From IMG/VR virus record IMGVR_UViG_3300024264_002047: a stretch of 64,000 nt of DNA. One strand, 5' to 3'. Below are positions 21,428 through 58,759 of the stretch, piece after piece (positions within the stretch are counted from its first letter, which is position 1; each line of letters begins with the position of its first letter). The DNA is from a virus. The translations under genes and the position numbers were made by a program. The notes under the pieces were generated by a model. That model ran no database searches, had not been told where the DNA came from, and was given only the letters and a program-made list of their open reading frames with translations.

Positions 21428-21940
21428 TTATGATTTATTTTTAGCAGCCAATTTTGCAGCAGCTTTTTCTTGTTTCGCAATTTCTTTATCATATGCCTTT
21501 TGATCTACATAACCGTTCTCTAAAAGCTTTATTCTATTCAACATGTGTTGTGCTTGAGTATCTTCTTTGGATCCACCGTAGTAAGGAACACAATGACCTT
21601 CTTCAGACATCACTGATGTAACTGGTCTCCATCCATCTGTTGTTGGACAGTAGACATCAAAGTCTCCAAGGATACGACCGAACTTGCCTTTCATATCTTC
21701 GCCGTTTCGAGCAACTTGAGTTTTTAATACTGGACGCTTACCTAGTAATTCTTTTAATCTTTTACTTGCAGCTTTACCAAATAACTTTTCTACTTTATCG
21801 CTTGTTCTTGATTCTGGTGTATCAATTCCCATGATACGAACTCTTTCGTTTCGTAACCAGATTCCAAAGCCAAGATCAATATCGACATCAACGGTATCGC
21901 CGTCAACTACTTTAATTAAATTTGTTCTATACTCGTACAT
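21428..21940 (-). CDS. thermonuclease (SNase-like)
   Basis: VVDGDTVDVDIDLGF, RVRIMGIDTPESRT, GKFGRILG. Confidence 0.88.
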   Translation of the reverse strand: MYEYRTNLIKVVDGDTVDVDIDLGFGIWLRNERVRIMGIDTPESRTSDKVEKLFGKAASKRLKELLGKRPVLKTQVARNGEDMKGKFGRILGDFDVYCPTTDGWRPVTSVMSEEGHCVPYYGGSKEDTQAQHMLNRIKLLENGYVDQKAYDKEIAKQEKAAAKLAAKNKS

Positions 21941-22317
21941 TGTTGTTTCTTCCTATAATCGTTTACCGCAGTTTTAATTGCATCTTCCGCTAATACCGAA
22001 CAGTGGATCTTAACAGGTGGGAGTGCAAGTTCTTCTGCGAGTTCAGTGTTTCTAATTGTTTCTGCTTTGTCGATGTGGATACCTTTGACCCACTCTGTAA
22101 GGAGACTGCTTGAAGCAATTGCTGAACCGCATCCATACGTTTTAAAACAGGCATCTTCTATAACGCCGGAGTCATTAACTTTGATCTGTAATCGCATTAC
22201 GTCACCACATGCAGGTGCGCCTACCATCCCAGTTCCTACAGTAACATCTGTCTCATCCATCTTCCCTACATTTCTAGGGTTTTCATAATGATCTATTACT
22301 TTTTCACTATAGGCCAT
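21916..22317 (-). CDS. iscU: Fe-S cluster scaffold IscU
   Basis: MAYSEKVIDHYENPRNVG, APACGDVMRLQI, YGCGSAIASSS, PVKIHCS. Confidence 0.97.
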   Translation of the reverse strand: MAYSEKVIDHYENPRNVGKMDETDVTVGTGMVGAPACGDVMRLQIKVNDSGVIEDACFKTYGCGSAIASSSLLTEWVKGIHIDKAETIRNTELAEELALPPVKIHCSVLAEDAIKTAVNDYRKKQQCTSIEQI

Positions 22318-22360
22318 TAGAATCAACTTTTGTTGATGCCGTGTTAATTGTCTCGCTCAT
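22307..22360 (-). CDS. 17 aa upstream ORF overlapping the iscU start
   Basis: AAGGAG RBS, MSETINTASTKVDSNGL, late promoter just upstream. Confidence 0.4.
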   Translation of the reverse strand: MSETINTASTKVDSNGL

Positions 22361-22382
22361 GCTCGACTCCTTTGTATAAGTA

Positions 22383-22390
22383 TATTTATA
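22383..22390 (-). promoter_or_regulatory. T4-type late promoter upstream of iscU
   Basis: TATAAATA. Confidence 0.75.
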
Positions 22391-22396
22391 CTCAGA

Positions 22397-23557
22397 CTAC
22401 CACTGAGAAGGATCCTCTAAGATAGAAACGATTTGATGACCAAGCTCAATCCATTCTTCCTTTGTTTTGCCACGAGTTGTTTCTGCGGCTGTACCAATAC
22501 GAATTCCACTTGTCTCTTTAAAGTTTCGAGGATCGTTAGGAATACCATTTTTATTTACAGTGATACGATGTTTCTCTAAGATATCAGCTGCTTGTCTTCC
22601 ACTCAATTCAGAGTTAACTAAACTTACTAATATAATATGAGAATCAGTACCACCTGATAATACAGATAGAGTATCGCTGTTATGTAATACTGCTGCTAAT
22701 GCCTGAGCGTTCTCAACTACCTTTGCTGAATAATCTTTAAACTCTTCAGTATCAGCTTCAACGAATGCTTGTGCTTTGGCAGCAATGATATTCATTAATG
22801 GTCCGCCTTGAGTACCTGGGAAGATTGCTCCATTGAGCTTTCTTGTATAGTCAGGATTGTTCCATAATATAATTCCACCACGAGGACCACGTAATGTTTT
22901 ATGAGTTGTAGAAGTAACAACATCGGCATAAGGAACAGGATTGTCATATACACCACCGGCAATTAAACCAGAATAGTGAGCCATGTCAACCATAAGTAAT
23001 GCACCTACTGAATCAGCAATTGCTCTGAACCTTACCCAATCAATTTGTCTTGGATATGCACTTGCACCAGCAACGACAATATCAGGTTTGTGTTCTTGTG
23101 CCAATCGAGCAACTTCGTCGTAATCAATTAAACCGTTTTCATCAACACCGTAAGTATGAGCATTAAACCATTTACCTGAAATCGTAACTGGAGCTCCATG
23201 AGTTAGATGACCGCCACTTGCTAAATCCATTCCAAGAATTGTATCACCTGGATTTAAGAATGCTTTATATACAGCAAGGTTTGCGTTTGCTCCACTATGT
23301 GGTTGAACATTAGCAAATTCACAACCGTATAGATCTTTGAGTTTATCAATAGCCAAGGTTTCGACTTCATCCATAAATTCGCAACCGTTATAATAACGAG
23401 CACCTGGATATCCTTCTGCGTATTTGTTTGTAAACTCTGAACCACAAAGTTTCATAACTGCTTTCGAAGCAAAGTTCTCTGAAGCAATTAGTTCTGTGGT
23501 TAATTTTTGGCGTGATAGTTCTTTTTGGTAAATCTTGTTAATTCTTTCATCTAGCAT
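22397..23557 (-). CDS. glyA: serine hydroxymethyltransferase
   Basis: [43 protein letters not shown]. Confidence 0.97.
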
Positions 23558-23558
23558 A

Positions 23559-23795
23559 TTATTGCTGTTCCATCCTATATTGTGTTTCTCTTATTAAATG
23601 ATAATAGGTACCTATCAACCTTTCGTCTTCAAAGATTTGAGGTTGAACGGACGTACCTATGCCTTTTTCTTTTAATTGATTATAATACATTGTCAGCCCA
23701 ATGTCAAGGAATTTATAACCCCCATAATGTTTGGCTGCATGTTCTTTAGCTTTATCGCAGAAAGCGCAAGCTCGAGTACCATAGATGTAGATCAT
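23559..23795 (-). CDS. glutaredoxin-like protein
   Basis: [20 protein letters not shown]. Confidence 0.75.
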
Positions 23796-24121
23796 GCCTT
23801 TGGTGTTTTATCTTTCCAATCGTTAATGTAATCAAGTTGCTTTGCTTGACTCCACTCTTGAGATAACTCTTCGTTATCTTCTGCAAAATATTTGAGTGCT
23901 TTAACTGTATCTACAATATCAATGTTAGTAACGGTTTCACCAAGCCAACGCTGACTGAACTCCTTTACTTCTTCAGCTTCAACAGATTCCTGAGACCATA
24001 ACTTGGCAAGCTTATCAGTACAATGAACTTCTTCATTCCACCTTTGTACTTCTTCTCTTGGAATAATATATCTCTGTTTAAACATTGAAACAGTATCAAC
24101 TACTACATAATCACTTTTCAT
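23792..24121 (-). CDS. hypothetical protein
   Basis: ORF in operon. Confidence 0.6.
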   Translation of the reverse strand: MKSDYVVVDTVSMFKQRYIIPREEVQRWNEEVHCTDKLAKLWSQESVEAEEVKEFSQRWLGETVTNIDIVDTVKALKYFAEDNEELSQEWSQAKQLDYINDWKDKTPKA

Positions 24122-24197
24122 TTTCTTTTCCTATAAAAATAACAATGCTATTAGGAATCCTATATTGAGTCCTAATGAACATGCTAATAATAAATCT

Positions 24198-24377
24198 TTA
24201 CCGAACGAGTCCCTTTCGACTATTACTTCTATCGGCCTCTCTCCGTGCCAATTGTTCATACAACGGCTCCTCTGCTACCGCAGGAGATTTAATGCATACC
24301 CTTGTATTAAAAGGTTGTCCACACTCTCTTGCGTATACTGTCTTACCCTTATCGGGACTTTCAAATATCTGTGCCAT
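24198..24377 (-). CDS. 59 aa hypothetical protein (not in ORF track)
   Basis: MAQIFESPDKGKTVYARE...; GGAG RBS. Confidence 0.6.
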   Translation of the reverse strand: MAQIFESPDKGKTVYARECGQPFNTRVCIKSPAVAEEPLYEQLARREADRSNSRKGLVR

Positions 24378-24386
24378 AATATACTC

Positions 24387-24566
24387 CTATACTACTTTAT
24401 TAATTATAAAGAAAGATAACATCATTGAACCGAATACTAGACATTGTAATATAGTGGCCCAAAAGATTTGTCTCATTGGGTGTATCTCTACAATCTTTTC
24501 TACCCAGCTTTCACTTGGTGATAGATTCACTACTTGTAATATCTTTTCTTCAGTACTTCCTGTCAT
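24387..24566 (-). CDS. 59 aa membrane protein (not in ORF track)
   Basis: MTGSTEEKILQVVNLSPSESWVEKIVEIHPMRQIFWATILQCLVFGSMMLSFFIINKVV. Confidence 0.65.
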   Translation of the reverse strand: MTGSTEEKILQVVNLSPSESWVEKIVEIHPMRQIFWATILQCLVFGSMMLSFFIINKVV

Positions 24567-24828
24567 TGTCTAACCTTCTTGTAATTTTGTTAATTATATT
24601 TTCTGCTTCAGGATAATCATCCATCATTTCGACGACTTTATCAATCATATCTAAATCAAGTAACATATCGTTTCGACGATTCAACCAACTCTCTTGTTGT
24701 TTCATCTGTTCGATTTTCATCTGTTCCATGTAATGCATATCATGTAACTTTTTGATGAATTGATTTACTTGTAACCATCTGTGATAATCTATATTGCCGT
24801 CCTTATCAAATGGTTTTTCTTTGCTCAT
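24550..24828 (-). CDS. hypothetical protein
   Basis: ORF in operon. Confidence 0.55.
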   Translation of the reverse strand: MSKEKPFDKDGNIDYHRWLQVNQFIKKLHDMHYMEQMKIEQMKQQESWLNRRNDMLLDLDMIDKVVEMMDDYPEAENIINKITRRLDNDRKY

Positions 24829-25241
24829 TTAAATAGCCCTATCCTTTCTCCCGCTGCTTTACGACGATCATACTCTTCGGGAGTAGAAGGGTAACGCCAT
24901 CCCCATGCTGCACCAAGAGCCATAAAGGTTCCTGAGTACGCAACCGCTTTCCAATTACCTGTAAATACAATCATACACAATAAAGCAAATGCCATAAATC
25001 CTAACATCATATACTTTGCCTTTTGCGGAAATACTTTTTTGGTTTCCCAGTTTGTTAAAAATGGTCCAAAGAGTTTATGGTTATATAACCAGTTGTGCAT
25101 TCTGTCTGAACTCTTTGCGAAACAATACGCAGCAAACACTGCAGGTATACTAAAAGGAATGCCTGGTAAGATAACACCTACATAAGCAACTCCTAAGCTA
25201 AGGAATCCTAATCCACCCCATGCTAACTTTTTCATATTCAC
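24825..25241 (-). CDS. YbaN/DUF454 inner-membrane protein
   Basis: GVILPGIPFSIP...FAKSSDRMHNWLYNHKLFGPFL..W...KAK. Confidence 0.85.
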   Translation of the reverse strand: MNMKKLAWGGLGFLSLGVAYVGVILPGIPFSIPAVFAAYCFAKSSDRMHNWLYNHKLFGPFLTNWETKKVFPQKAKYMMLGFMAFALLCMIVFTGNWKAVAYSGTFMALGAAWGWRYPSTPEEYDRRKAAGERIGLFK

Positions 25242-25501
25242 GATAGTACAGCCTTAATATGTTCTGCCGCAATAATCACAGCGTCTTGTCCGCCAATTCT
25301 TACAGGCATTGATTTATCCCAAGATAGATATACCGTATCACCTTTGTTTAAATGGGTTGCTTCAGGACCTACTGATAATATGATACCAGGCTCTGATGCA
25401 GTTTGTTTTACGTCAGCTGATAATATAATACCACCTGCTGTTGTTTCTTCTTTTGGAGCAGCTGCTACTAGTACTTGCTCTCCAATCATTTGAATACTCA
25501 T
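25238..25501 (-). CDS. groES: co-chaperonin GroES-like
   Basis: EETTAGGIIL mobile loop, GIILSVGP, GDTV. Confidence 0.8.
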   Translation of the reverse strand: MSIQMIGEQVLVAAAPKEETTAGGIILSADVKQTASEPGIILSVGPEATHLNKGDTVYLSWDKSMPVRIGGQDAVIIAAEHIKAVLS

Positions 25502-26325
25502 TATATTTTCCTTCGGTTTATTGTGGAAGTTAGTCCACTTCTTTTTTCTTCAATCTCCATGTTCATTACTTGACTGTTATCAATTAATGGTTTAGCAGGA
25601 GTCTCACGCTCACGTTTAAATGCGGCGGTACTTACAATTAATAACATTATTGCCAAAGGATCAAATACGAATATAATTATAAGTATAATCCATCTGACAG
25701 CATTGTCATAATATTCTTCTGCCTCAGTTCCGTATATCATATCAGCGATATATTTAACAGGACCGAGTTCCGATTCTTGTTCTAACTGAAGTCTCTGTAT
25801 AGGTAACTTCTGTTCGTTATATTGTACAATACTATCCACTGCTTTGTCAATAGTTATTGCTAAATTATTTCTTTCTTCTGTTTGACGTCCATTAACATAA
25901 TTACGATCTTTAGGTTGTGAAGTCTGTAATACGTAATCTAATCCTTCGATTCTATCTTGTGCAGCTTTAAGTTTGGATTGCTCTGCAGCTATTCTTGTAT
26001 CAATGATACTTGCTTCGAGAGAATAGGTATCTCCAGTTAAAGCAGAATCAATATGAGCTTTAGAAAGGAATCCAAATATACCCATACTTGTAATTAACAT
26101 TAGGACTATAACAGCGGCTGTAAAATAACCACGAACTAAATTATTGATTCTATCCCATTCGTAATGTAACCATGCTGCTGAAACAAGTTTACCAAACTCA
26201 AGCACAGTTGCCATAACGGCAATACTGAGAGCAGCGCCACTAAAGATTGTCATTAATCCTATGATACTAAAATATGCAGCGGTTGCTGCTAAAGTGAGGG
26301 ATGTTGTTAAAGTTAACCATTTCAT
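25501..26325 (-). CDS. conserved-type phage membrane protein
   Basis: Four TM segments flanking a coiled coil; ITSMGIFGFLSKAH, FVFDPLAI. Confidence 0.7.
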   Translation of the reverse strand: MKWLTLTTSLTLAATAAYFSIIGLMTIFSGAALSIAVMATVLEFGKLVSAAWLHYEWDRINNLVRGYFTAAVIVLMLITSMGIFGFLSKAHIDSALTGDTYSLEASIIDTRIAAEQSKLKAAQDRIEGLDYVLQTSQPKDRNYVNGRQTEERNNLAITIDKAVDSIVQYNEQKLPIQRLQLEQESELGPVKYIADMIYGTEAEEYYDNAVRWIILIIIFVFDPLAIMLLIVSTAAFKRERETPAKPLIDNSQVMNMEIEEKRSGLTSTINRRKI

Positions 26326-26333
26326 AATATTAT

Positions 26334-27536
26334 TTATTTGTAATAAGCAAATGTCTCTTTGAGTCCGACAATCAAATCTTCCATCATACCATTAGTATGT
26401 AAGGGAGTAGGTGTAATTCTAAGTCGTTCTTTACCAACATCGACTGTTGGATAATTAATTGGTTGCACATATAATCCATGTTCGTTTAATAACCTATCTG
26501 ACATTAGTTTACATTTCTTTGCATCTCTAACCATCACTGGTAATATATGAGTGCAACTCTCTTCGTGTAATTCTATACCTTCATCAATTAACATATTCTT
26601 TAAAGTCAATGCTCGTTCTTGATGAGTTTCTCTTAAATCATTATGGTCTGCCAAGTAACGAACAGAGGCAATTGCGCCTGCAGCCATAACAGGTGACATA
26701 CTTGTTGTAAAAATAAATCCACTTGCGACTGATCGTATAGCATCAAGAACAACACTATCACCAGCAATATAACCTCCATGACAACCAAACGCTTTTCCCA
26801 AGGTTCCATTTACAATATCCACTCTATCCTGTGATAAAATCTTTTCGCAGTATCCTGCGCCTGTTTCTCCGTATAAACCTACGGCATGTACTTCATCTAT
26901 ATATGTCATTGCTCCATACTGATCTGCCAAATCGCAAATCTCTTCAATAGGAGCAACATCTCCATCCATACTATATACTGATTCAAATACAATACATGGT
27001 ACATAACCAGCTTCAACTGTAACTTGTAAACATTCTTCTAACGATTCCATATCATTATGTTCAAATACATGTTTATGAGCGCGACTATGTTTCATACCCA
27101 TAATCATTGAGGCATGATTCTTATTGTCCGAAACGAAACATATATCAGGAATGATACGAGATAGAGCAATTAACGCCCATTCGTTTGCTACATAAGCAGA
27201 AGTAAATAATAAACCGCTTTCTTTTTTATGCAGGTCTGCTAAAACCTTTTCGAGAGTAACATGATAATGAGAGGTACCGCCAATATTGCGAGTACCTCCA
27301 CTACCACTGCCTGTCTTTAACAATGCGGTTTGCATTGCGTCAATTACATACTTGTTTTGTCCCATTCCCAAATAATCATTTGAGCACCAGTTAACAATTG
27401 TCTTAGGGGAATAAGGTGAGTACCAAGTCGCTTTAGGAAAGTTTCCTTTATCACGAACGATATCGTTAAATACTCTGTACTTACCTTCTTCCTTTAATTT
27501 GTCAACTACGTTTTGGAACGGTTGTTTGTTTATCAT
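26334..27536 (-). CDS. hemA: 5-aminolevulinate synthase (C4/Shemin pathway)
   Basis: [63 protein letters not shown]. Confidence 0.95.
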
Positions 27537-27545
27537 TTCTACGCC

Positions 27546-28754
27546 TTATGCTGCGTAGGCATCATCCCAGGTTCCTTCTAAACCAGCAACCTCATATTCG
27601 GTTACTCGATTCTCGAAGAAGTTTGTATGGTCTGCACCATTCAATACCCATTCTAACCAAGGTAGTGGATTTTCCTTTACCTTGAAATTTGGTTTCATGC
27701 CTAACTGTAATAATCTTCTGTCGGTTATATATTTTATATATTCTTTTACTTCGGATTTTTCCAGTCCTTCAATAGAACCCATTGCGTATGCAAGATCAAT
27801 GAACTTATCTTCGAGATCTACAATATCTTTTGACATTTCGTAAATTTCTTTTTTGAACTCATCGTCAACAACACGACTATGTTCTTTTACGAATGCTTTG
27901 AATAATTTAGAGTTACCTTCAACGTGAATTGATTCGTCTCTAATACTCCATTCTACTACTTTACCCATACCTTTCATTTTACCGAAACGTTGAAAGTTAA
28001 GTAACATAACGAAAGAAGCAAATAAAGCAACACCTTCGTTGAATACTGATTTGGCTAATGATAAACCAAGACCGCGTAGAGTATTGGTATCTGCCTTTCT
28101 CATATAATCAATCTTATCAGCCATCTCAGAGTAATCCAAGAACGCATGATATTCACTATCAGGTAAACCTAATGTTTCATTCAATAGCGCATAAGCACGT
28201 TGATGAATACCTTCTCTTGCTGCAAATGATCCTAACATATTACGGATTTCGTTATTCTTAAACTTAGGAATAAACTGATCGTAATAGTTCTGACCAACGG
28301 CAACATCTGATTGAGTAAATAGACGTAAGATATTTGTAATATAGTCTTTCTCAACTTGACCGATCTTACCGCCTTTCCAATCAGCAACATCTTCAGACAA
28401 ATCCAATTCGTCTTCGATCCAATGAGCTTTCTCATGTCTTGTTGTAATTTCAACAGCCCAAGGATAGTGAAACGGCTTGTATGTTTCAGAGAATTCTAAA
28501 AGACCACCTTGTTTCTTGACTAACTTGTCTGCTATTGCCATAAGGTCGTTATACGTACCTACATGTTCGTCGTTAATGTATATCTGTGGTACGGATCTTA
28601 CTTCCTTACCGTTAGACACTCTTTGATAAAAAGCAAGTCTTTGCTCCTCATCATCTAATACTACCTGTGTATAACCAATTCCATGTTGATTAAACCAGGC
28701 CTTTGCCTTTTCGCAAAAAGGGCAATTGGATTTCGTATAAATTAAAACTTCCAT
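27546..28754 (-). CDS. nrdB: glutaredoxin-fused ribonucleotide reductase beta subunit
   Basis: N-terminal YTKSNCPFC...SVPQIYI, then FTQSDVAV, EGIHQRAY, RDESIH, NFFENRVTEY. Confidence 0.93.
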   Translation of the reverse strand: MEVLIYTKSNCPFCEKAKAWFNQHGIGYTQVVLDDEEQRLAFYQRVSNGKEVRSVPQIYINDEHVGTYNDLMAIADKLVKKQGGLLEFSETYKPFHYPWAVEITTRHEKAHWIEDELDLSEDVADWKGGKIGQVEKDYITNILRLFTQSDVAVGQNYYDQFIPKFKNNEIRNMLGSFAAREGIHQRAYALLNETLGLPDSEYHAFLDYSEMADKIDYMRKADTNTLRGLGLSLAKSVFNEGVALFASFVMLLNFQRFGKMKGMGKVVEWSIRDESIHVEGNSKLFKAFVKEHSRVVDDEFKKEIYEMSKDIVDLEDKFIDLAYAMGSIEGLEKSEVKEYIKYITDRRLLQLGMKPNFKVKENPLPWLEWVLNGADHTNFFENRVTEYEVAGLEGTWDDAYAA

Positions 28755-28759
28755 TTCGT

Positions 28760-30547
28760 TTATCCTTGGCATGCTACGCATTCATCTTGTTCCTCTTCTG
28801 ACTTACCAAATTGTACTGCGTTAGGGTTAATAATATCATCTAACTTTTCGCGTTTCACTTTTTCGGAAACGTTTTCTGCTCTGTTAGAAGATTCTGTTCT
28901 TAAATAATATAATCCTTTACAACCTTCTGCCCATGCTTGATAATGTACTGTATGTAAGTACTTCTTATCAGCTCCTGCTGGGAAAAAGATGTTAAGGGAT
29001 TGGCCTTGGCATAAATACTTTTGCCTGTCTCCTGCTAGCTTAATTAACGCGTGTTGGTTTAATTCTATTGCCGTCTTGAAAACATTCTTTATATGATCAT
29101 CTAGAAACTCTAAATGTTGAACTGACCCACCATTAGTAATAATAGTTGACCATACTTCATCTGTATTTTTACCACGTTCTTCCAATACCTTTTCAAGATA
29201 TGGATTTTTATTTAGGTGACTACCCACCCTTGTTCTAGAAGTAAATGCATTTGCCTTCCAAGGTTCAATACTTGGCGAGGTATCTACAATCATAGAACTA
29301 TTTGCGTTTGGAGCAATTGCTAACATATGAGCATTACGTCGGCCTGTGCCTTTCATATCTGGTGCTTCACCTCGACGTTTACCCATTTCTTCAGTTGCTT
29401 CAACCGACTTTCTTTTCATATATTCAAAGATCTCTTCGTTCCTGTCAATTGCTTCTTGACTATCAAACGCAATTAAGTTTCTTTGGAAGTAGGAATGTAA
29501 TCCCATCGCTCCTAAACCTAATGATCTTTCTTGTTGTGCACTATAACGTGCTTTACTAATCTCATCACCTGCATTATCAATAAAGAACTGTAATACATTG
29601 TCCAAGAATACGATAAGGTCTTTAACCATATTAGTATCTTTCCATTCGTCGTACTTTTCTAAATTGACTGAAGATAAACAACATACTGCTGTTCTTTCTT
29701 CGTCGGTCACAAGGTGTATCTCATTACATAAGTTAGATCCTTTAATTGATAAACCCAAATCCTTTTGAGATTGTGGTAATGCCGCGTTGGCAGTATCAAT
29801 AAAGTTAACATAAGGTTCGCCTGTTCGGTATCTTGTCTCTAATACTAATTCCCATAGTTTACGAGCATCTACCATTTCACGAACTGACTTGTCGTTAGGA
29901 TCTAATAAACCCCATTGCTTGCCATCTCTAACCGCTTCCATAAAGGCATCAGTTAAATTAACAGCATGATGAAGGTTTAAATTCTTTCTGTTTACGTCTC
30001 CTGTTGGAATACGCATATTAATAAATTCTACAATATCCGGATGGTCAATATCCATATAAGCTGCATAAGAACCTTTTCTTGTACGGCCTTGACGATATGC
30101 AACCATGTCAGCATCAACTGTATGTAAAAACGGCATCGGTCCTGGAGCCTTTTTAGATACTGCTCGAATATCAGACCAATGACCACCTACTCCACCACCT
30201 TTAACAGATAACCATCGCAACTCTGCTGTATGGTCAATCAATCCGTCTAAAGTATCAGGTACATATGTTAAGAAACAACTAATAGGTAATGCTTTTGCTT
30301 TCTCTCCCTTTAAGACTGCATTAGACAGTACAGGAGAAGAATACATAAAGTATCCTTGAGATACATAATCATATATTCTTTGTGCAAGTTTTAAATTACC
30401 ACCGCAGAATGCAACCGCTGCTCGAGCATAAGCCATTTGTGGAGATTTCTCATCATCTCGACAATAATAGTCTTTCAATAATTTAAATGATTGTTCTCCA
30501 AGATCCTTATCTCGTTTTGTTTGAATTTCAATACCTAGATGCTGCAT
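28760..30547 (-). CDS. nrdA: class Ia ribonucleotide reductase alpha subunit
   Basis: LPISCF, GSNLCNEI, AVCCLSS, IAPNANSS, LYYLR, C-terminal CVACQG. Confidence 0.96.
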   Translation of the reverse strand: MQHLGIEIQTKRDKDLGEQSFKLLKDYYCRDDEKSPQMAYARAAVAFCGGNLKLAQRIYDYVSQGYFMYSSPVLSNAVLKGEKAKALPISCFLTYVPDTLDGLIDHTAELRWLSVKGGGVGGHWSDIRAVSKKAPGPMPFLHTVDADMVAYRQGRTRKGSYAAYMDIDHPDIVEFINMRIPTGDVNRKNLNLHHAVNLTDAFMEAVRDGKQWGLLDPNDKSVREMVDARKLWELVLETRYRTGEPYVNFIDTANAALPQSQKDLGLSIKGSNLCNEIHLVTDEERTAVCCLSSVNLEKYDEWKDTNMVKDLIVFLDNVLQFFIDNAGDEISKARYSAQQERSLGLGAMGLHSYFQRNLIAFDSQEAIDRNEEIFEYMKRKSVEATEEMGKRRGEAPDMKGTGRRNAHMLAIAPNANSSMIVDTSPSIEPWKANAFTSRTRVGSHLNKNPYLEKVLEERGKNTDEVWSTIITNGGSVQHLEFLDDHIKNVFKTAIELNQHALIKLAGDRQKYLCQGQSLNIFFPAGADKKYLHTVHYQAWAEGCKGLYYLRTESSNRAENVSEKVKREKLDDIINPNAVQFGKSEEEQDECVACQG

Positions 30548-30561
30548 TCTTTACTCCGTTA

Positions 30562-31260
30562 TTATTCTTGTACATATTCTTTGGTTAAGGGAAAGATATT
30601 GGTAATTACTCTTGCACATTCTACAGCAAGATCCATATGTTCTAACTGAGTACCGTTACCTGATCGCAATTCAATATAATGAATCCATGATCTTAGTGTA
30701 CCATTGACATATAATCTTGAGACTGTATTGCCTTCTGGTAAAACCGCTCTTGCTTGTTCTTTTGCGATTCCTTTATCAATTGCCCATTTATATAATTTTT
30801 CTGTTTCTCGAATGAAGTCCATTTGTTTCATTCTCCAATCTTCTGCTATTCTTCTTTGACCTTCGTCGTCCATATCAACTGCGATACTATTTTGACGATT
30901 CTTTGTATCTTGGAATCTTGCTTCGCGTGGTATCATTTCTAAATCTTCAAGTGGGTTTGCGTATCTTTGGCTAAACTCTTGAAAGGAGAAACTACGATGT
31001 CTTAGTAGTTGACGAGCAATATCTCTTGTCGTTTCAACTTCTAAACAAACACTGACCATTTCCAAAGGTGACCAATGTTTATGCTTGATTAAATAATTAA
31101 CAAGCTTACTATTTGTTGCTGTGTTGTTTTGATTACTAGGATTACTTACGCGAGCACAATATGCTACTAAACCTAATAAAGAATTATCTCCTTTAAGAAC
31201 TTCCTTAGGAGACCCTACAATTGTAGGTACTTGACTATGACTAATCAATTTTACTTTCAT
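30562..31260 (-). CDS. thyX: flavin-dependent thymidylate synthase
   Basis: RQLLRHRSFSFQEFSQRY motif. Confidence 0.95.
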   Translation of the reverse strand: MKVKLISHSQVPTIVGSPKEVLKGDNSLLGLVAYCARVSNPSNQNNTATNSKLVNYLIKHKHWSPLEMVSVCLEVETTRDIARQLLRHRSFSFQEFSQRYANPLEDLEMIPREARFQDTKNRQNSIAVDMDDEGQRRIAEDWRMKQMDFIRETEKLYKWAIDKGIAKEQARAVLPEGNTVSRLYVNGTLRSWIHYIELRSGNGTQLEHMDLAVECARVITNIFPLTKEYVQE

Positions 31261-31266
31261 TATATA

Positions 31267-32292
31267 CTATGTCCTTTTCCATTGTTGAAATTTCAATTTA
31301 GCTTCCAAACCTCTATATGTTATTGTTCTCATTAAACTCTCAACGCAAGATATACTTCCATCAAGAACCATTTCATTAATATCTTTGCCAGGTACATTGT
31401 GTGGCCATATCACAACACTGTGTCCTGCATCGATTATACGTCCCATCCTTTTATGAATCTCTAAATTACGAGGTTCAGCATCAAAGACGAAGACTGCATT
31501 ATCCACCTTTTCAAGCGAATTGGTATTTCCATCTGCTCCATTCATTGCGATTGCATTTGATAAGAACATACTATCAAGTGCACCTTCAACAACATAATAC
31601 TTTTCGTTAAAGTTAACTTTGTCAAGTCCGTACAGTTTAGGTACTTCATCGAACATAATAGTTATATAACGAAGGAACGCGTCAGGGTCCATTGACCTTG
31701 CCGATACTCCGAAACAATTGCCGTCTTTATCCAAGAACGGTATTACAAGTCGAGCTTCGTCTTTCTTAACGTTCTCGAACTTATTTGGTACTATCCCATT
31801 GATCCATTCTTTAAACTTAGGTGCAAAGTAAAGACGGTAATGGTGCTTAGAAGGAATAGACCTTTTATCTATATATTTCTTTACTGGGTGGTTATAATCA
31901 AGTTGGCTGATTTTTTTTAACTTTTTTAATGGATCCGAACGAGAGAATTGTGGTTCGGTAAATTTGGTTGACTCTAGAGTTGATGTTACCGTTTCAACTG
32001 TGTTATTTGCTTTGCCGATGAATTTCTCAGCGACATAATCATTGTATGCTAACGGATCAACTGCCTTTAGAAAATTACCAAAGATATGACTTGCACCACA
32101 ATTATGACAGAAGTAAAATAACTTATTGTCTTTTTCGAGGAGCCAACCACGTGCTTTTGATTTATTCTTTTTAGAATCCCCACACAAGGGACAACGAAAG
32201 TTGATCTTGTATGGGTTTGTGTTTTTGATGCGATATCGGTCGAGTCGCCCTGCCAAATGTTGGGCGTACTGAATATCAACAAAGTCAAGCAT
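31267..32292 (-). CDS. DNA primase (T4 gp61-like)
   Basis: RCPLCGDS...CHNCG zinc finger; VVEGALDSMF, FDAEPRN, KDINEM. Confidence 0.95.
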   Translation of the reverse strand: MLDFVDIQYAQHLAGRLDRYRIKNTNPYKINFRCPLCGDSKKNKSKARGWLLEKDNKLFYFCHNCGASHIFGNFLKAVDPLAYNDYVAEKFIGKANNTVETVTSTLESTKFTEPQFSRSDPLKKLKKISQLDYNHPVKKYIDKRSIPSKHHYRLYFAPKFKEWINGIVPNKFENVKKDEARLVIPFLDKDGNCFGVSARSMDPDAFLRYITIMFDEVPKLYGLDKVNFNEKYYVVEGALDSMFLSNAIAMNGADGNTNSLEKVDNAVFVFDAEPRNLEIHKRMGRIIDAGHSVVIWPHNVPGKDINEMVLDGSISCVESLMRTITYRGLEAKLKFQQWKRT

Positions 32293-32328: not shown

Positions 32329-32357
32329 ATTATAACAAATAATAAGAAGGATGTCAA
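32329..32357 (-). promoter_or_regulatory. sigma70-type promoter
   Basis: TTGACA-17-TATAAT upstream of primase-thyX-nrd operon. Confidence 0.85.
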
Positions 32358-32881: not shown

Positions 32882-32922
32882 ATTATATCACAGAATACAT
32901 TGTATGTCAACAAGTATTTATA
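32882..32922 (-). promoter_or_regulatory. tandem sigma70 and late promoter
   Basis: TTGACA-17-TATAAT (32882-32910) and TATAAATA (32915-32922). Confidence 0.75.
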
Positions 32923-50797: not shown

Positions 50798-50832
50798 GTT
50801 TACCCTATTAAAATTAGTATATATCTAGAGTT

Positions 50833-50840
50833 TATTTATA
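50833..50840 (-). promoter_or_regulatory. T4-type late promoter
   Basis: TATAAATA heading the 50797-46677 operon. Confidence 0.8.
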
Positions 50841-50847
50841 CAGATTC

Positions 50848-53326: not shown

Positions 53327-53329
53327 ATT

Positions 53330-53614
53330 TTATTCTCCACTTAGAATTTGATGTAACTTATCGGCAAACGCATCAAGTTTCTCATATCGGTTTGGCCAAT
53401 ATATGTAATCCTTTTCTGGGTTTGCTTTTAAGTTATTCAATAGCGGTACAACCGCATCATATAATAATTGTGCCTTAGCTGCGCTCGATTCAGCAGAAGC
53501 TGCAGTTGTAGTAACTGCTTCCTTTGCTTGTTGAACGACTTCAAGCTCATCGGCGTCAACAGCTGTAAAACCAAAATCAAAATCGAGAATGGTTGTTTCT
53601 TTTTCAATAGACAT
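53330..53614 (-). CDS. conserved-type T4-like hypothetical protein
   Basis: DFDFGFTAVD...NPEKDYIYWPNR. Confidence 0.65.
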   Translation of the reverse strand: MSIEKETTILDFDFGFTAVDADELEVVQQAKEAVTTTAASAESSAAKAQLLYDAVVPLLNNLKANPEKDYIYWPNRYEKLDAFADKLHQILSGE

Positions 53615-53625
53615 AATGCCCTCCT

Positions 53626-53650
53626 AAAAAGTGGGGACCCGAAGATCCCC
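53626..53650 (-). terminator. intrinsic terminator
   Basis: GGGGATC-TTCG-GGTCCCC-AC-TTTTT after gp32. Confidence 0.85.
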
Positions 53651-53659
53651 GACAGTTGT

Positions 53660-54586
53660 TTAACTACGTGCCAATTCCTTAAAAATACTAAGGTCATCAT
53701 CATCATCACTAGCGGACGATCCTACTGATGGTTCGGCAGTTGCCATAACCGGTTCAGAAGTATCATTTGACATTCCGGATAAATCCAGTTCGTCAGCTGT
53801 TTCAACAACCGGTGCCGAAGCAGTCGGTTCATCATTTTGTAGATCAAGTACACGATACATTTTAGTTTTTAGTTCTGCGTAAGATTTGAAATTACTTTCA
53901 GATACTAATTCCTGTAGAGAATGTTGTTCTCCCCAAATTCTTTCCAATGCTTCATCATCTTCAGACAATGGAGACGCAGGATCGAATTCAGATTTATCGT
54001 AGTTCGGATAACCTTCGAACTGTCTGATCTTTAGACGAAAGTTTGCACCTTCCCATAGATCAAACGGATTGGTTGGTTCTTCATCTTCAAAAGTTGGATT
54101 CATTAAATCGTTCAACTTATCAAAGATCTTTTTACCGAACTGATACATGAATACTTTACCTTCATTCTCAGGATTAGCGCCATCTTTTACAACATAGATG
54201 TTAGCAGTATACTTCAGCCTACGCTTCTGTTTACGTGCTTGTTCTTTGTCGGATTCGACACCACTGTTCCAAAGCTTAGAGTTAAACTCAGAGATTGGAT
54301 CATCCTGGTTCAGAGTGGTTAGAGAGTTTTCGATATACCATAGACCTGTTGGTCCTTGGAATCCATGATCCCAAATTCTTACAAAGGGCATCTCTTCACC
54401 TTTCGAGGCTGGTAGGAATCGAATGACTGCGAAGCCATTTCCTGCCTTATCTCGTGTAGGTTTCCAGAATTTCCCTGCGTTGGGGTCTTGGTATGATTTT
54501 GAAGAAATCTTTTCGAGTTGTGAATTCAACTTGTCGAGAGTCTTCGTACGGTTCTTCTTGAGTGAAGAAAAGTCTGTTAGTGCCAT
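53660..54586 (-). CDS. single-stranded DNA-binding protein (T4 gp32-like)
   Basis: GNGFAVIRFLP, HGFQGP, WYIENS, GKKIFDK, GANFRLK, acidic tail. Confidence 0.96.
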   Translation of the reverse strand: MALTDFSSLKKNRTKTLDKLNSQLEKISSKSYQDPNAGKFWKPTRDKAGNGFAVIRFLPASKGEEMPFVRIWDHGFQGPTGLWYIENSLTTLNQDDPISEFNSKLWNSGVESDKEQARKQKRRLKYTANIYVVKDGANPENEGKVFMYQFGKKIFDKLNDLMNPTFEDEEPTNPFDLWEGANFRLKIRQFEGYPNYDKSEFDPASPLSEDDEALERIWGEQHSLQELVSESNFKSYAELKTKMYRVLDLQNDEPTASAPVVETADELDLSGMSNDTSEPVMATAEPSVGSSASDDDDDLSIFKELARS

Positions 54587-54626
54587 AATTAGTTCTCCTG
54601 TTATATAGCGTTATATTGCGTAGTAT

Positions 54627-55232
54627 TTAAATACCGAAATGATTCTTGATTAACTCTTGAAATCGTTTCGGTTCAAAATCGAGAAAGGGTTTATACTTTC
54701 GCGATTTGTTTATTATATCAAAAGATACGTGTTTGTCAACTACTTTTTCACTCCAGTACGAAAATATATTCGCTTGATGAGAAAGAATAGTAAATGTTTC
54801 CAAACTAATCTTCTTTTGTAACAACAATGTCATTACCAAAGGATGTTGTCCATCTATTGATATAAAGTTTCGCTTGTATTCATCATTAAGATGAGCAAGC
54901 TCGGATTTGAAGATATAACCTAATGATTCTATCCTCTTCCTCCAATTCGTGTATCTGGCTTCTCCTTCACTGTCAAGTAGATCTCGAACCCAGATGTTTT
55001 TATTTATTAAAAGATTACTCAAAATTAGACCTTGTGGGTCATCTTTTTTCGCCAATTTTGCGAACGAATAAGCGTCGTTCCTTGACATAAAGGTATCAAT
55101 ATTTGCTCGTACCTTTCCATTGTATTTGAAGTAATCGTAATTATCCGTCGTAAAATGTTTCTTTAGTGCCAAAAATTTAACATACGTGTTAAACGAATCA
55201 TCACTTACTAAAGTCTGTGATATCTTGTTCAT
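54627..55232 (-). CDS. helicase loader (T4 gp59-like)
   Basis: YVKFLALKKHFTTDNYDYFKYNGK; ISLETF. Confidence 0.9.
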   Translation of the reverse strand: MNKISQTLVSDDSFNTYVKFLALKKHFTTDNYDYFKYNGKVRANIDTFMSRNDAYSFAKLAKKDDPQGLILSNLLINKNIWVRDLLDSEGEARYTNWRKRIESLGYIFKSELAHLNDEYKRNFISIDGQHPLVMTLLLQKKISLETFTILSHQANIFSYWSEKVVDKHVSFDIINKSRKYKPFLDFEPKRFQELIKNHFGI

Positions 55233-55476
55233 CTTCTCTTTTCACCATTCTCAAGTCAACTGCTTCAGTCCGTATCTTTTCCTTCAATACAGAACTCTTC
55301 TTTACAATTTGTGCAATCGTTTCAATTTCAATTCCATTCTTATCAGCAAAATGGCATAGAGCATCGATGTACGGTACTCCTTTTGAAATATGTCTAGATA
55401 TTTCGTGGTGGATTCTATCGGGCGTTAAAGCTACAACGGACATATCAGTGTTTTCCTTGATTTCTTTTTTTGTCAT
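55201..55476 (-). CDS. late transcription coactivator (T4 gp33-like)
   Basis: YIDALCHFADKNGIEIETIAQIV...LKEKI..EA; canonical position before gp59-gp32. Confidence 0.8.
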   Translation of the reverse strand: MTKKEIKENTDMSVVALTPDRIHHEISRHISKGVPYIDALCHFADKNGIEIETIAQIVKKSSVLKEKIRTEAVDLRMVKREDEQDITDFSK

Positions 55477-55487
55477 GTATACCTTGT

Positions 55488-55516
55488 ATTATATACTAGT
55501 TAACTGCGTATGTCAA
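55488..55516 (-). promoter_or_regulatory. sigma70-type promoter (proximal)
   Basis: TTGACA-17-TATAAT. Confidence 0.85.
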
Positions 55517-55586
55517 TAGTTATTTTTGTTTTGTGTAAATAAATCCGCTCAACTCAAAGGTTTCCCTTTTATTGTTGAACAGATCT

Positions 55587-55615
55587 ATTATAACAAGTTT
55601 TTAGTCAGATGTCAA
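55587..55615 (-). promoter_or_regulatory. sigma70-type promoter (distal)
   Basis: TTGACA-17-TATAAT. Confidence 0.85.
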
Positions 55616-55623
55616 TCTATTTA

Positions 55624-55773
55624 TTAAGAATATGATGACATTACAATGATGAAGAACGGTAGGGCGATGGGGAATGTAATCAGCGACAGGGCTTTTGTGA
55701 TCTCACAAAATTTGCATACTTTTTCATTATCTTTTAATCTTTCGTAACCAGCAATCAATGCATAAGTGGTCAT
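55624..55773 (-). CDS. 49 aa CxxC membrane microprotein (not in ORF track)
   Basis: MTTYALIAGYERLKDNEKVCKFCEITKALSLITFPIALPFFIIVMSSYS; GAAGGAGAG RBS. Confidence 0.7.
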   Translation of the reverse strand: MTTYALIAGYERLKDNEKVCKFCEITKALSLITFPIALPFFIIVMSSYS

Positions 55774-55914
55774 TTCTCTCCTTCTTGGAATTATACGTAT
55801 AGTTTTAAATTATGTTACCACCGGTAACAGCAATTATATATACAAAGTTGAAGAGAAATTCACTATAAATTTATATTATATTTAGTAATAGATTATATTA
55901 CATTTCGTTATAGG

Positions 55915-56619
55915 TTACACTTCCCTAAAGAGCACGTTTTCTACGTATTGATTCTTGGTTTCCTCAGGTATTCCCATTGCCAAAATTGAACTATGCAGCA
56001 TTCGATTAAGCTTCTGCTTTGCACAATACTTATTTTGTCTTTCGAGAGTATTAATCCATTTCTTAGTGTATTGAGGATTGCCCATTTCCATTGTATAGAA
56101 CCTCGATAGTTCCAAAGCCATGTTAACGAGTTGCTCTGTTTCTTCGCCTGTACGAATTGCTCCTGCACCTATAATGTTTTCCGAAAAGATCTCTAACGCC
56201 CAATCTGGCATTTGTCTTTCTTTTGTCCATGTAAACTTTTCAGTTGTAGTTTTGAACTTAATCATATATGGATGCAGAAGAGTTTGGCCAACATCTATTG
56301 GAGAGTAATCGCAAAAGCAGCCGCTAATCTTTTTTGGATTCGCTACAATATCTAAACCAAAGATAGGTAGATCAACATGTTCTTGTGGGAATATATTGAT
56401 ATGCATTAACCATAATTTGTTTTTACCAACAGGCTCAATTGTTTTAAGATGAGCTTTACGAATTGTTGAAGACTCCCAAAAGTAATCTGACCACCCAGGC
56501 AAATCACCAGCATGAATATGTTTAGGATTCTCGACTCTTGTCATAGAGCCGTCAAATTCGTTAATTAATGTAGAAGCAAGTTTTCTTAATTGGTCGAACA
56601 GTTCTGAATCAACTATCAT
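55915..56619 (-). CDS. ferredoxin-dependent bilin reductase (PcyA/PcyX-like)
   Basis: RKAHL, MHINIFP, LPIFGLDIV, FCDYSP, MPDWA.EIFS, QNKYC..QK.N; start revised; coupled to heme oxygenase. Confidence 0.9.
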   Translation of the reverse strand: MIVDSELFDQLRKLASTLINEFDGSMTRVENPKHIHAGDLPGWSDYFWESSTIRKAHLKTIEPVGKNKLWLMHINIFPQEHVDLPIFGLDIVANPKKISGCFCDYSPIDVGQTLLHPYMIKFKTTTEKFTWTKERQMPDWALEIFSENIIGAGAIRTGEETEQLVNMALELSRFYTMEMGNPQYTKKWINTLERQNKYCAKQKLNRMLHSSILAMGIPEETKNQYVENVLFREV

Positions 56620-57232
56620 CTTCTTCCCAGCTTCCCATTGTTCTTGCTCTTGCATAATCTTCAGGTTCGTAATTCTCAGCGTTATTACGATAGTTTTCCA
56701 TAAGTTCATGGAATAGTCTTTCTGCGTATTCAAAACAGATCATTGCTTCGTCTGCCATATCATCGTGTAATAATGTTCTTACACTTTTAATAAGTTCGGC
56801 TCTATTCTCGAATTCATACATAAGACCCGACCCAGGTACGTTTCTTTTGATGATTTGTCCACCATGAGCATCTCCAAAATGACGCACATATAGATGAGCA
56901 AGAAGACCTTCATTATTTCCTTCCTCCAGCAAAGTTAAGATATGTTTGTTATATTCGTTTGTAGATTCGAAGTTATCTTCTATTTCATCGAGATCAAATG
57001 AGTTCTCAATTTCCTGAAGATCTTCTTCGATTTGTGTAGACCTAAATATTGGTTCAAGCTCCATAGGGACTTCAACGGCAGATTCCAAAACCATGTAGTT
57101 TTGTAGTTGTGCGTGTAAATATTCTTGATATAGTTTAGGACTGATATTTCCGGATAGTAACATCTCTGCGAATTCTGTTCGTTCCGCGTTATCGTGATGT
57201 TGCCTAGTTAGTTCTTTTAGATTGTTTGACAT
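56609..57232 (-). CDS. heme oxygenase
   Basis: LKELTRQHHDNAE (proximal His), LAHLYVRHFGDAHGGQII, EAMICF. Confidence 0.92.
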   Translation of the reverse strand: MSNNLKELTRQHHDNAERTEFAEMLLSGNISPKLYQEYLHAQLQNYMVLESAVEVPMELEPIFRSTQIEEDLQEIENSFDLDEIEDNFESTNEYNKHILTLLEEGNNEGLLAHLYVRHFGDAHGGQIIKRNVPGSGLMYEFENRAELIKSVRTLLHDDMADEAMICFEYAERLFHELMENYRNNAENYEPEDYARARTMGSWEEDDS

Positions 57233-57271
57233 TGTATACCTCTCAAGTTAAATTCATATTGTATCTGCAAC

Positions 57272-57283
57272 TATTTATAAATA
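57272..57283. promoter_or_regulatory. palindromic bidirectional late promoter
   Basis: TATTTATAAATA contains TATAAATA on both strands between divergent operons. Confidence 0.75.
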
Positions 57284-57324
57284 ATTACTGAACACAATTG
57301 TATATATCTCATTAGGAGCAACTC

Positions 57325-58074
57325 ATGAAGCAACCAGTACAATTTTGTGATGTAAAAAGTGAAGCAATTAAAAAAGCAGAAATGGCAAAGATTGCCTACG
57401 AAGATGGACCTATAGCAAAAAAGGAATTTAAAGCCCTTGGTTATACTGGTCACGCCTTCATTGACAAAGACGGTGCACAAGCTCATTGTGTATGGAACAA
57501 AGAGGAATTTGTTTTATGCTGCCGTGGAACAGAACCTACCGAAATCAACGACCTCAAAGCAGACCTTAATATTTGGCCAGATAAAGCACAGGTTGGTGGA
57601 TGGGTACATAATGGATTCCAAACAGAAATCGATGATATCTGGGAAGACGTATTAAAAGTAATCGGTAAACAACTCAAAACCAAAAGATTAAGTATATGTG
57701 GACATTCATTGGGTGGAGCAATGGCAACAATTGCTGGGTCTCGATTAATGGATCACAAACCAGTTCTATATACTTTTGGATCACCAAGAGTCGGTAACGG
57801 AAAATTTGTAAAAGAATGTGCTGACCTTGAACATTATCGTTTTGTAAATAACAATGACCTCGTAACTGTTATACCACCTTGGTTTATGGGTTACCGTCAT
57901 CATGGCCAAGTTATGTATTTCAACTATAACGGTATAATTAAAAACCTAGCGTGGTGGAGAAAACTAAAAGACAAACTACGCGGTATATTAACATCGTGGA
58001 TCAAATTGAAGCCTTTCGACGGACTTACAGATCACTCAATGGATAACTATACAAAATATACTAAGGATAACTAA
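57325..58074 (+). CDS. class 3 lipase (alpha/beta hydrolase)
   Basis: RGTE, VHNGF, GHSLGGA, YTFGSPRVGN, RFVNNNDLV, DHSM. Confidence 0.92.
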   Translation: MKQPVQFCDVKSEAIKKAEMAKIAYEDGPIAKKEFKALGYTGHAFIDKDGAQAHCVWNKEEFVLCCRGTEPTEINDLKADLNIWPDKAQVGGWVHNGFQTEIDDIWEDVLKVIGKQLKTKRLSICGHSLGGAMATIAGSRLMDHKPVLYTFGSPRVGNGKFVKECADLEHYRFVNNNDLVTVIPPWFMGYRHHGQVMYFNYNGIIKNLAWWRKLKDKLRGILTSWIKLKPFDGLTDHSMDNYTKYTKDN

Positions 58075-58445
58075 TGGACATTTTAGAGAGACTATTCGAC
58101 GATACTCTATGGATCTATACAGCAATCCTTGGCTCAATTGGTGGTGCCGCTTTTCTATTTTGGTTTAAAGATACAAGAGCAGCTCAATGGGGTGTAGCAA
58201 AATTTGACCTTCTTTTGGAAACATTAGCAGTACGATGGGGTTGGACATGGTTACAAACTGATCCTGATCTATGGAGAAAGAAATACCCTAAGGTTGTTGC
58301 TAAGATTGATGAATTAGAAACAAGAATCGCGTTTATGGAAGAGATTGCTCACGCTCCTGTTGAACCAGGTGGAGCAACTGAACTTAAATCACTTATCGAT
58401 GATATCAATAAAAGACTTGATAAAATCGAAAAGAAGAAGAAGTGA
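58074..58445 (+). CDS. hypothetical membrane protein
   Basis: N-terminal TM helix, C-terminal coiled coil. Confidence 0.6.
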   Translation: MDILERLFDDTLWIYTAILGSIGGAAFLFWFKDTRAAQWGVAKFDLLLETLAVRWGWTWLQTDPDLWRKKYPKVVAKIDELETRIAFMEEIAHAPVEPGGATELKSLIDDINKRLDKIEKKKK

Positions 58446-58759
58446 TTGGCTTAACTGATGCAGCGATATCTCAAGCGTCTAAGAAAGCAACGGCAGAAGG
58501 CAAGCAATTTATTCGAGTTGGTGTTGTTCCTGGCGGTTGTACTGGGTTTGAGTATTTGTTTCAGTGGGCTGACGAAATTAGTAATGATGATTTTATAGAA
58601 GCATACGGTAATTTTAAAATAGTTGTTGATGCATATAGTAAACCCTATTTAACAGAAGCTACATTAGATTTTGTTAAAGAAGGACTTAACGAACAGTTCA
58701 AGATAATGAATCCTGCAGAGAAAGCCTCTTGCGGTTGTGGAATTTCTGTTCAATTTTAA
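58442..58759 (+). CDS. iscA: A-type Fe-S carrier IscA/HesB
   Basis: GGCTGFEY, LDF, NP...SCGCG.S. Confidence 0.92.
   Translation: MIGLTDAAISQASKKATAEGKQFIRVGVVPGGCTGFEYLFQWADEISNDDFIEAYGNFKIVVDAYSKPYLTEATLDFVKEGLNEQFKIMNPAEKASCGCGISVQF

Follow-up and report, generated by a model that had tools for sequence, protein, structure and literature searches.

Why should a marine phage encode enzymes at both the entry and the exit of tetrapyrrole metabolism, together with proteins of iron-sulfur (Fe-S) assembly? This question is raised by IMG/VR record IMGVR_UViG_3300024264_002047, a stretch of 64,000 nucleotides which is called the window here. It derives from an uncultured marine T4-like myovirus and carries serine hydroxymethyltransferase (SHMT, glyA), 5-aminolevulinate (ALA) synthase (alaS), heme oxygenase (hemO), a ferredoxin-dependent bilin reductase (FDBR), the Fe-S scaffold gene iscU, and an A-type Fe-S carrier gene that we call iscA for brevity. 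A sequence-only reading of the window had joined these six genes into one distributed pathway from glycine to bilin with Fe-S support. On balance, our analysis inclines us to another view, in which two temporal programmes of known auxiliary gene types, rather than one module, reside in the same genome.

Gene identities were assigned by profile matches from Pfam and NCBIfam, with about 70 open reading frames (ORFs) of the window being scanned. The six ORFs are present where the sequence-only reading had placed them, their family matches are far above chance, and catalytic or ligand residues are intact in all of them. IscU (21916-22326, minus strand; TIGR01999, 219.8 bits, cut-off 192.4) keeps the ligands Cys40, Asp42, Cys66, His108 and Cys109 as well as the chaperone-binding motif LPPVK. 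SHMT (22397-23557, minus strand) matches PF00464 with E=4.5e-147 and NF000586 with 566 bits (cut-off 335), and has its pyridoxal phosphate (PLP) lysine motif TSTTHK at residues 215-220. The Shemin-type ALA synthase (valaS; 26334-27536, minus strand) scores 550.7 bits against TIGR01821 (cut-off 338.6), while the paralogue models KBL and BioF give 310 and 306 bits, both under cut-off, and the SPT models are exceeded as well. Its PLP lysine, K248 in R. capsulatus numbering, is part of the motif GTLGKAFG, is invariant across 10 viral sequences, and aligns with the structures 7x98 and 2bwn, both of which are matched. The R. capsulatus heme-feedback residues are absent: Lys occupies the His342 position, and the C-terminal Cys (Cys400) is missing.

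The heme oxygenase (56609-57232, minus strand; PF01126, 71.6 bits) carries a proximal His13 that aligns with the proximal His of HO-2, and a distal GDAHGGQ that aligns with GDLSGGQ; both elements, the His and GDxxGGQ, have counterparts in HO-1 as well as in HO-2 and are invariant in our alignment A2. Its stop overlaps the start of the reductase gene by 11 nt. The reductase (55915-56619, minus strand; PF05996, 70 bits) most likely starts at the ATG at 56619, yielding 234 aa, and not at the TTG at 56733, so that the oxygenase-reductase pair proposed for 55915-57232 holds with a corrected inner boundary. The A-type carrier (58442-58759, plus strand; TIGR00049, 92.1 bits, cut-off 58.8) retains the cysteine triad Cys33, Cys97 and Cys99. 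Here the earlier label iscA is too specific, as the A-type-carrier subfamily model is reached and the equivalog cut-offs of IscA, SufA and ErpA are not.

The class of the reductase deserves a closer look. A membership in the PcyA/PcyX (AX) lineage follows from the PF05996 match, from the kept equivalents of PcyA His88 and Asp105, and from the solved structures, among which PcyX (5OWG, 97 bits) is closest and PcyA reaches 53 bits. Within this lineage, the protein matches neither characterised member. It scores 99.9 bits against the PcyA model NF002760, where 206 are required, and it has Lys58 (in IRKAHLK) at the position taken by Glu76 in PcyA and by Asp55 in PcyX. This Lys is invariant in 92 of 92 clade relatives, which span 38-100% identity, whereas Asp is found at the position in 5OWG, in Pelagibacter phage Mosig EXVC030M and in two distant viral contigs, G004 (237 kb) and G010 (66 kb), whose core proteins are only 25-30% identical to those of the window. 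In PcyX, the Asp at the PcyA-Glu76 position has been tied to the formation of phycoerythrobilin (PEB) (PMC11480375, PMC13446030). With Lys at this product-determining position, the bilin product cannot be inferred, and the Lys/His/Asp triad of the predicted enzyme is outside the characterised FDBR classes. The Lys motif was not found in the accessible part of the FDBR sequence supplement of Wegner et al. (PMC11480375).

For a comparison of gene order and promoters, IMG/VR loci around relatives of the window genes were fetched (at least 216 contigs for alaS, 135 for glyA, at least 574 for hemO, at least 591 for the DUF454 gene described below, and also loci for iscA) and searched with the window proteins. 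Two promoter classes emerge. A T4-type late promoter motif, TATAAATA, is located 57 nt upstream of iscU (22383-22390, minus strand). On the hemO side, the palindrome TATTTATAAATA (57272-57283) constitutes the late motif on both strands within 12 nt; hemO is about 40 nt away from it and a divergent lipase gene about 42 nt, and its opposite face lies ahead of the lipase-orf123-iscA operon. By contrast, a perfect sigma-70 consensus, TTGACA-17-TATAAT, is found about 120 nt before glyA (23679-23707, minus strand), inside a glutaredoxin-like ORF, and another perfect sigma-70 promoter (32329-32357, minus strand) heads the primase-thyX-nrdAB-alaS run.

This division is conserved among relatives. Ahead of hemO, the late motif was seen at 83/86 loci, with corresponding figures of 29/30 for the lipase gene and 26/43 for iscU, but it is rare in the early set (glyA 0/79, alaS 3/79). 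The perfect sigma-70 promoter precedes the primase gene in 41 of 42 related loci and glyA in 15 of the 20 relatives with a glyA at least 80% identical, and it is absent before hemO (0/46 loci) and the lipase gene (0/30). Since the promoter classes differ, sigma-70 on the one side and the T4 late motif on the other, we infer that alaS and glyA would be expressed early, along with nucleotide metabolism, and hemO-FDBR, lipase-orf123-iscA and iscU late.

As a side observation, two scanned regions (19 kb) contain eight perfect 12-of-12 sigma-70 promoters, a number that we consider above chance by judgement, not by calculation. All are on the minus strand, at 21048-21076, 21393-21421, 23679-23707, 32329-32357, 32882-32910, 54712-54739, 55488-55516 and 55587-55615, and those before primase, gp33 and the bS21 gene are kept in most relatives.

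The surroundings of alaS are well conserved. Directly upstream, the genes of primase, thyX, nrdA and nrdB form a run on the minus strand (27546-32292; thyX at 30562-31260) whose order is kept in relatives, and in close relatives the arrangement reads primase-thyX-nrdA-nrdB-alaS-orf274-(cpn10)-DUF454-...-grx-glyA-iscU-SNase-bS21. In this run, NrdB (27546-28781, minus strand) is a fusion with an N-terminal glutaredoxin domain. Downstream of alaS we find orf274 (25501-26325, minus strand), a predicted membrane protein with no family match, which stands between alaS and the DUF454 gene in the window clade, then a Cpn10/GroES-like co-chaperonin (25238-25501, minus strand), which is variably present there in relatives, and finally a membrane protein of the DUF454/YbaN family (24825-25241, minus strand; PF04304, 98 bits).

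It is this DUF454/YbaN gene, and not glyA or iscU, that is the steady partner of viral alaS. All but three of the 73 informative phage loci (70, or 96%; loci L001-L080 and L410-L486) have it downstream of alaS, and in distant lineages it follows alaS directly, with a gap of 2-240 nt that often shrinks to 2-70 nt or gives way to an overlap. The converse association is weaker, as alaS precedes DUF454 in 33 of 33 loci of the window clade and in 17 of 36 outside it; at least 591 viral contigs have a member of the family, and outside the window clade about half of them are without alaS. Around the 80 nearest alaS genes of Alphaproteobacteria, the fetched flanks of 6 kb showed no DUF454 gene. The literature on DUF454/YbaN holds weak hints of a link to iron starvation.

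The association of glyA with alaS is looser. A glyA gene downstream of alaS is confined to loci whose alaS shares 80% identity or more with that of the window; in a sister subclade, glyA is found on the far side of gp41, 6-8 kb from it, and about 21 kb separate it from alaS. Three long contigs with alaS (G004, G005 and G010) have no glyA, and glyA occurs without alaS in G006, G008 and G009 and in T4-like phages of Aeromonas. Both G008 and G009 carry thyX. The sequence-only reading had allowed that GlyA might just feed ThyX, and this alternative, given the thyX gene in the alaS run and the glyA-thyX genomes without alaS, is at least as well supported as a supply of glycine to AlaS. In Alphaproteobacteria, on the other hand, a co-oriented glyA follows alaS (hemA) after 0.2-2.2 kb in 32 of the 62 informative loci (L274-L353), among them loci from Caulobacterales, Parvibaculales, Hyphomonadaceae and Maricaulaceae. 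This bacterial gene order may mean that cells connect glycine supply with ALA synthase, or it may go back to common descent. Beside the phage glyA lies a 78-aa protein (23559-23795, minus strand) with a weak PF00462 match. It was considered as a monothiol Fe-S glutaredoxin and rejected on account of its dithiol motif CAFC, which makes it a glutaredoxin/NrdH-like protein.

At the other end of the window, the order gp41-uvsX-gp32-gp59-gp33-FDBR-hemO is constant among hemO loci. In a first set of loci, 39 of 40 have a divergent iscA-like gene upstream of hemO, and in an extended set 14 of 26 have one (53/66 in total). This gene either adjoins hemO directly, sometimes at about 80 nt, or sits behind an insert of a class-3 lipase gene and orf123 (57325-58445, plus strand; PF01764, 78 bits), which in the window lies between the late promoter and iscA. 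This insert is restricted to the window subclade; some hemO loci have it and others do not. It places a phage lipase, under a late promoter, next to heme and iron genes. In a subclade with hemO 60-69% identical to that of the window, iscA is gone and its slot is filled by unrelated ORFs; for the ORFs in the slot of iscA-less lineages, Pfam gave no informative family. In one lineage, glyA fills the slot directly upstream of hemO, the usual place of iscA (L407, positions 1-3000).

The two Fe-S genes of the window are 36 kb apart, and a scan with the iscA protein alone (15 loci) revealed adjacent iscU-iscA pairs in phages without hemO nearby. Alleles were compared between the window and loci L003-L009 and L082-L109. 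Contigs with hemO 85-97% identical carry an FDBR that is either 64-68% or 82-100% identical and an iscA that is either 53-60% or 82-94% identical. Likewise, the iscU alleles found at the same position fall into two groups, of about 50-57% and of 96-98% identity. This mosaicism of iscU, iscA and FDBR suggests frequent allele replacement at auxiliary genes.

Are the genes found together beyond close relatives? A distance of about 30 kb between alaS and hemO is seen again in G007 and in contig 3300031519_002997. In the distant contigs G004 and G010, alaS is accompanied by iscA or iscU and, at a distance of 31-35 kb, by hemO and FDBR as neighbours.

Possible acceptors and electron donors were looked for as well. 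Among the scanned ORFs of the window no ferredoxin, ferrochelatase, phytochrome/GAF or phycobiliprotein-like ORFs were found, and the window has no photosystem gene, in good agreement with the sequence-only reading, which had seen neither a phycobiliprotein nor a photosystem gene there and had pointed to ferredoxin, GAF and bilin-binding proteins as worth searching for elsewhere in the genome. In five related long contigs (685 kb), no Pfam match above cut-off was obtained for plant-type ferredoxin (Fer2), ferrochelatase, phycobiliprotein/BBAG-like proteins or GAF, and no bilin-binding globin was found. With no phage ferredoxin found, the reductase must use host ferredoxin; for IscU and IscA, no phage client was found in the contigs G007, G002 and G003.

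Gene identities, intact residues, gene order and the conservation of promoter motifs are what the data show. Implementing these observations, we propose the following course of events, in which timing, fluxes and the selected product, be it bilin or iron, are matters we infer. Early in infection, under promoters of the host sigma-70 type, an AlaS predicted to be insensitive to heme feedback would be made from the end of the primase-thyX-nrdA-nrdB operon, followed by DUF454/YbaN, and glyA, 2.8 kb further on, would be transcribed from its own promoter. This early set probably maintains ALA and heme synthesis and the folate/dTMP cycle after host shut-off. SHMT would mainly regenerate methylene-tetrahydrofolate for ThyX, its co-product glycine being the substrate of AlaS. 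Late in infection, the translationally overlapping hemO-FDBR pair, the divergent lipase-orf123-A-type-carrier operon and iscU would be expressed. Heme would then be cleaved to biliverdin, CO and Fe2+, biliverdin would be reduced with host ferredoxin, and phage IscA and IscU, present in the same phase, could capture the released iron.

Three other explanations have to be weighed against two programmes. One selected pathway could lead from serine via glycine, ALA, heme and biliverdin to the bilin, with the Fe-S genes supporting the ferredoxin that the reductase draws on, with bilin or CO as the desired product and with iron merely cycled; we regard this as quite unlikely. Its core, an entry and an exit of tetrapyrrole metabolism in one T4-like genome, is correct, and several observations speak for it. 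Two subclades keep alaS, glyA and hemO-FDBR despite a move of glyA by about 20 kb, and G004 and G010 unite alaS, hemO-FDBR and an iscA or iscU gene on distant backbones. The glyA gene directly beside hemO in the L407 lineage fits as well, and a Lys/His/Asp triad that stays invariant among reductases of 38-100% identity speaks for selection on the catalytic product. The 32 of 62 alphaproteobacterial loci with glyA after alaS also indicate that glycine supply and AlaS are linked in cells, although this synteny comes from related orders and may be due to descent. The sequence-only reading is in part supported; what does not hold is its single co-inherited and co-regulated set, since the entry and exit enzymes are under different promoter classes and the genes occur without each other, glyA being absent from three alaS contigs and present without alaS in three others and in Aeromonas phages. 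In addition, seven host enzymes separate ALA from heme, and neither the window nor the 685 kb of relatives yielded a bilin-binding protein, a phytochrome, a GAF domain or a ferredoxin. An explanation by iron salvage, which we rate as unlikely, confines itself to the late unit: iron from host heme would be stripped onto the A-type carrier and IscU for Fe-S or other iron processes of the phage in iron-poor seawater, and the reductase would merely clear biliverdin to allow oxygenase turnover. That heme oxygenase frees Fe2+ and that A-type carriers bind iron or clusters is established biochemistry, an iron-supply role of hemO/pcyX has been discussed (PMC11480375), hemO, iscA and iscU all have late motifs, and iscA divergently adjoins hemO in 53 of the 66 informative loci. 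Yet iscA is missing beside hemO in the subclade of 60-69% identity, iscU-iscA pairs exist in phages that have no hemO in the vicinity, and G007, G002 and G003 yielded no phage Fe-S client. Moreover, a clearing role fails to explain the strictly kept residues of a four-electron-type reductase, and an early AlaS would pull iron into heme.

The genes might also not be coupled at all, being independent auxiliary genes collected at insertion hot spots, one behind nrdB and one in the interval from gp33 to the following module, with GlyA serving only thymidylate and one-carbon metabolism and IscU and IscA acting as generic Fe-S helpers. This we hold to be somewhat unlikely. The variable slot upstream of hemO (lipase-orf123-iscA, iscA alone, glyA or unknown ORFs), the mosaic alleles of iscU, iscA and FDBR between close relatives, and the occurrence of each gene without the others in some lineage speak for it. 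Mixed sources are in line with it, too: AlaS shares at most 57% identity with alphaproteobacterial sequences, IscU has 76% identity with one from an Acinetobacter-labelled record, and viral IscU has been placed with Gammaproteobacteria (PMC5332604). Against this stand the recurrence of alaS with hemO-FDBR in no fewer than three strongly divergent backbones, those of the window clade, G004 and G010, as well as in the 69 contigs reported in PMC11480375, the tight cassettes known elsewhere (PMC11480375), and the promoter region that hemO and iscA have in common in most loci.

Our preferred explanation, the two temporal programmes, is itself open to objections. The early/late timing is read from promoter motifs, and the functions of AlaS, heme oxygenase and reductase in the window clade are assigned by sequence alone. 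The co-occurrence of all genes is essentially that of one clade and therefore represents very few independent events. Early heme synthesis and late heme destruction could equally be two unrelated functions, and the Lys-type reductase may behave unlike PcyX. In the close relatives G007, G002 and G003, no Fer2 or radical-SAM gene was found that could act as an Fe-S client. The long contigs G002 and G003 stop before the gp41-gp32-hemO block, so their lack of hemO says nothing.

A more specific arrangement is conceivable, though we think it improbable: late hemO, the Lys-type reductase (whose bilin would be neither the PEB of PcyX nor the phycocyanobilin of PcyA), the A-type carrier and IscU would form a unit recycling heme iron to cofactors, and AlaS with DUF454/YbaN would separately form a unit of two parts.

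That phages boost both ends of tetrapyrrole metabolism is already published (PMC11480375), and the reason for bilin synthesis by phages of non-photosynthetic marine bacteria is named there as an open question. New in this study are the timing by motif, the DUF454 partnership, the iscA-hemO flank, the distribution of glyA and the Lys reductase. For the open question they offer three testable handles: the early/late split between ALA-making and heme-breaking, the frequent promoter sharing of hemO with an Fe-S carrier gene, and a reductase residue unlike both characterised classes. The near-obligate pairing of AlaS with DUF454 is, in addition, a possible first functional lead for a widespread uncharacterised family.

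The remaining content of the window supports its origin. It is AT-rich (36-39% GC), and nearly all genes are on the minus strand. The T4-like backbone is represented by gp41, UvsX, gp32, gp59, gp33, primase, RNase H, DNA ligase and NrdAB; ThyX, PhoH, Cpn10 and ribosomal protein bS21 (21090-21386, minus strand) are encoded as well, and a tRNA-Arg(ACG) is found at 63863-63939 (minus strand). From CheckV estimates on related contigs, the genome has roughly 200 kb. All cultured phages are distant, with a top UvsX identity of 58%, and a blastn search of window positions 55000-59000 against them returned zero matches. Protein searches among cultured phages did not find a true ALA synthase; the matches were KBL/BioF or contaminant records. 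As to the host, AlaS is compared with diverse Alphaproteobacteria in the figure of at most 57% given above, and IscU, by its similarity to the IscU of the Acinetobacter-labelled record, looks gammaproteobacterial. No c-type cytochrome was found in the window, where CxxCH occurs only in ORFs or frames that lack annotation and within, or overlapping with, a cell-wall hydrolase.

How does the window compare with known systems? A PcyX/HemO cassette of phages was reportedly described by Ledermann et al. in 2016 and 2018, with 5OWG as the structure of PcyX. The window agrees with it in that PcyX is the best structure match of its reductase, the His and Asp equivalents are kept and hemO lies directly upstream, but it differs in the defining Asp of PcyX, which is Lys in the window clade. 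Pelagibacter phage Mosig EXVC030M, the sole cultured phage with a related heme oxygenase, is likewise a T4-like marine myovirus with hemO adjacent to a PcyX-like gene. Its heme oxygenase is just 37% identical, however, its pair lies beside neck genes, and its reductase has Asp. In Mosig (MT647606.1, 39650-44735), hemO-pcyX is found near four annotated 2OG-Fe(II) oxygenase genes and a 'putative ferrochelatase'. The hemO-pcyA-alaS island of Bradyrhizobium sp. ORS278 with bphP (PMC11480375) brings together the same three enzyme types; unlike the window, where neither was found, it includes a phytochrome acceptor and a Glu-type PcyA.

Nishimura et al. (2017) reported IscU and A-type-carrier genes in marine T4-like environmental viral genomes and grouped viral IscU with Gammaproteobacteria (PMC5332604). 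The Fe-S genes studied here resemble theirs as IscU and A-type carriers of T4-like phages that are scattered among relatives without them. They differ in lying far apart, in the late promoter region that iscA shares with hemO, and in close relatives where no radical-SAM gene or other Fe-S client was found.

The closest set is that of Wegner et al. (2024, Nat Commun; PMC11480375), who found viral alaS in marine and freshwater phages, either alone, in a hemO-pcyA/X-alaS cassette, or in a 'broken cassette', with alaS and a hemO-FDBR set together on 69 contigs. They demonstrated vAlaS activity for a freshwater homolog from phage CB_2, noted that many vAlaS lack the heme-feedback residues, and termed the purpose of the catabolic pair hemO/pcyX enigmatic; glyA, the Fe-S genes and DUF454 are not mentioned there. 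The N-terminus of the window-clade AlaS was not found in the accessible part of their sequence supplements. A contiguous three-gene cassette is not present in the window, as hemO-FDBR and alaS are 29 kb apart. The window differs from the published set also in the joining of alaS to a thyX-nrdAB operon and in a reductase with Lys in place of Asp55. It shares with it an alphaproteobacterial-type AlaS with the PLP lysine present and the heme-feedback residues absent, neighbouring hemO and FDBR genes within that T4-like genome, which corresponds to the 'broken cassette', and the origin from a marine metagenome. Since the parts of our core finding are described in PMC11480375 and PMC5332604, we consider it a further example of a published kind.

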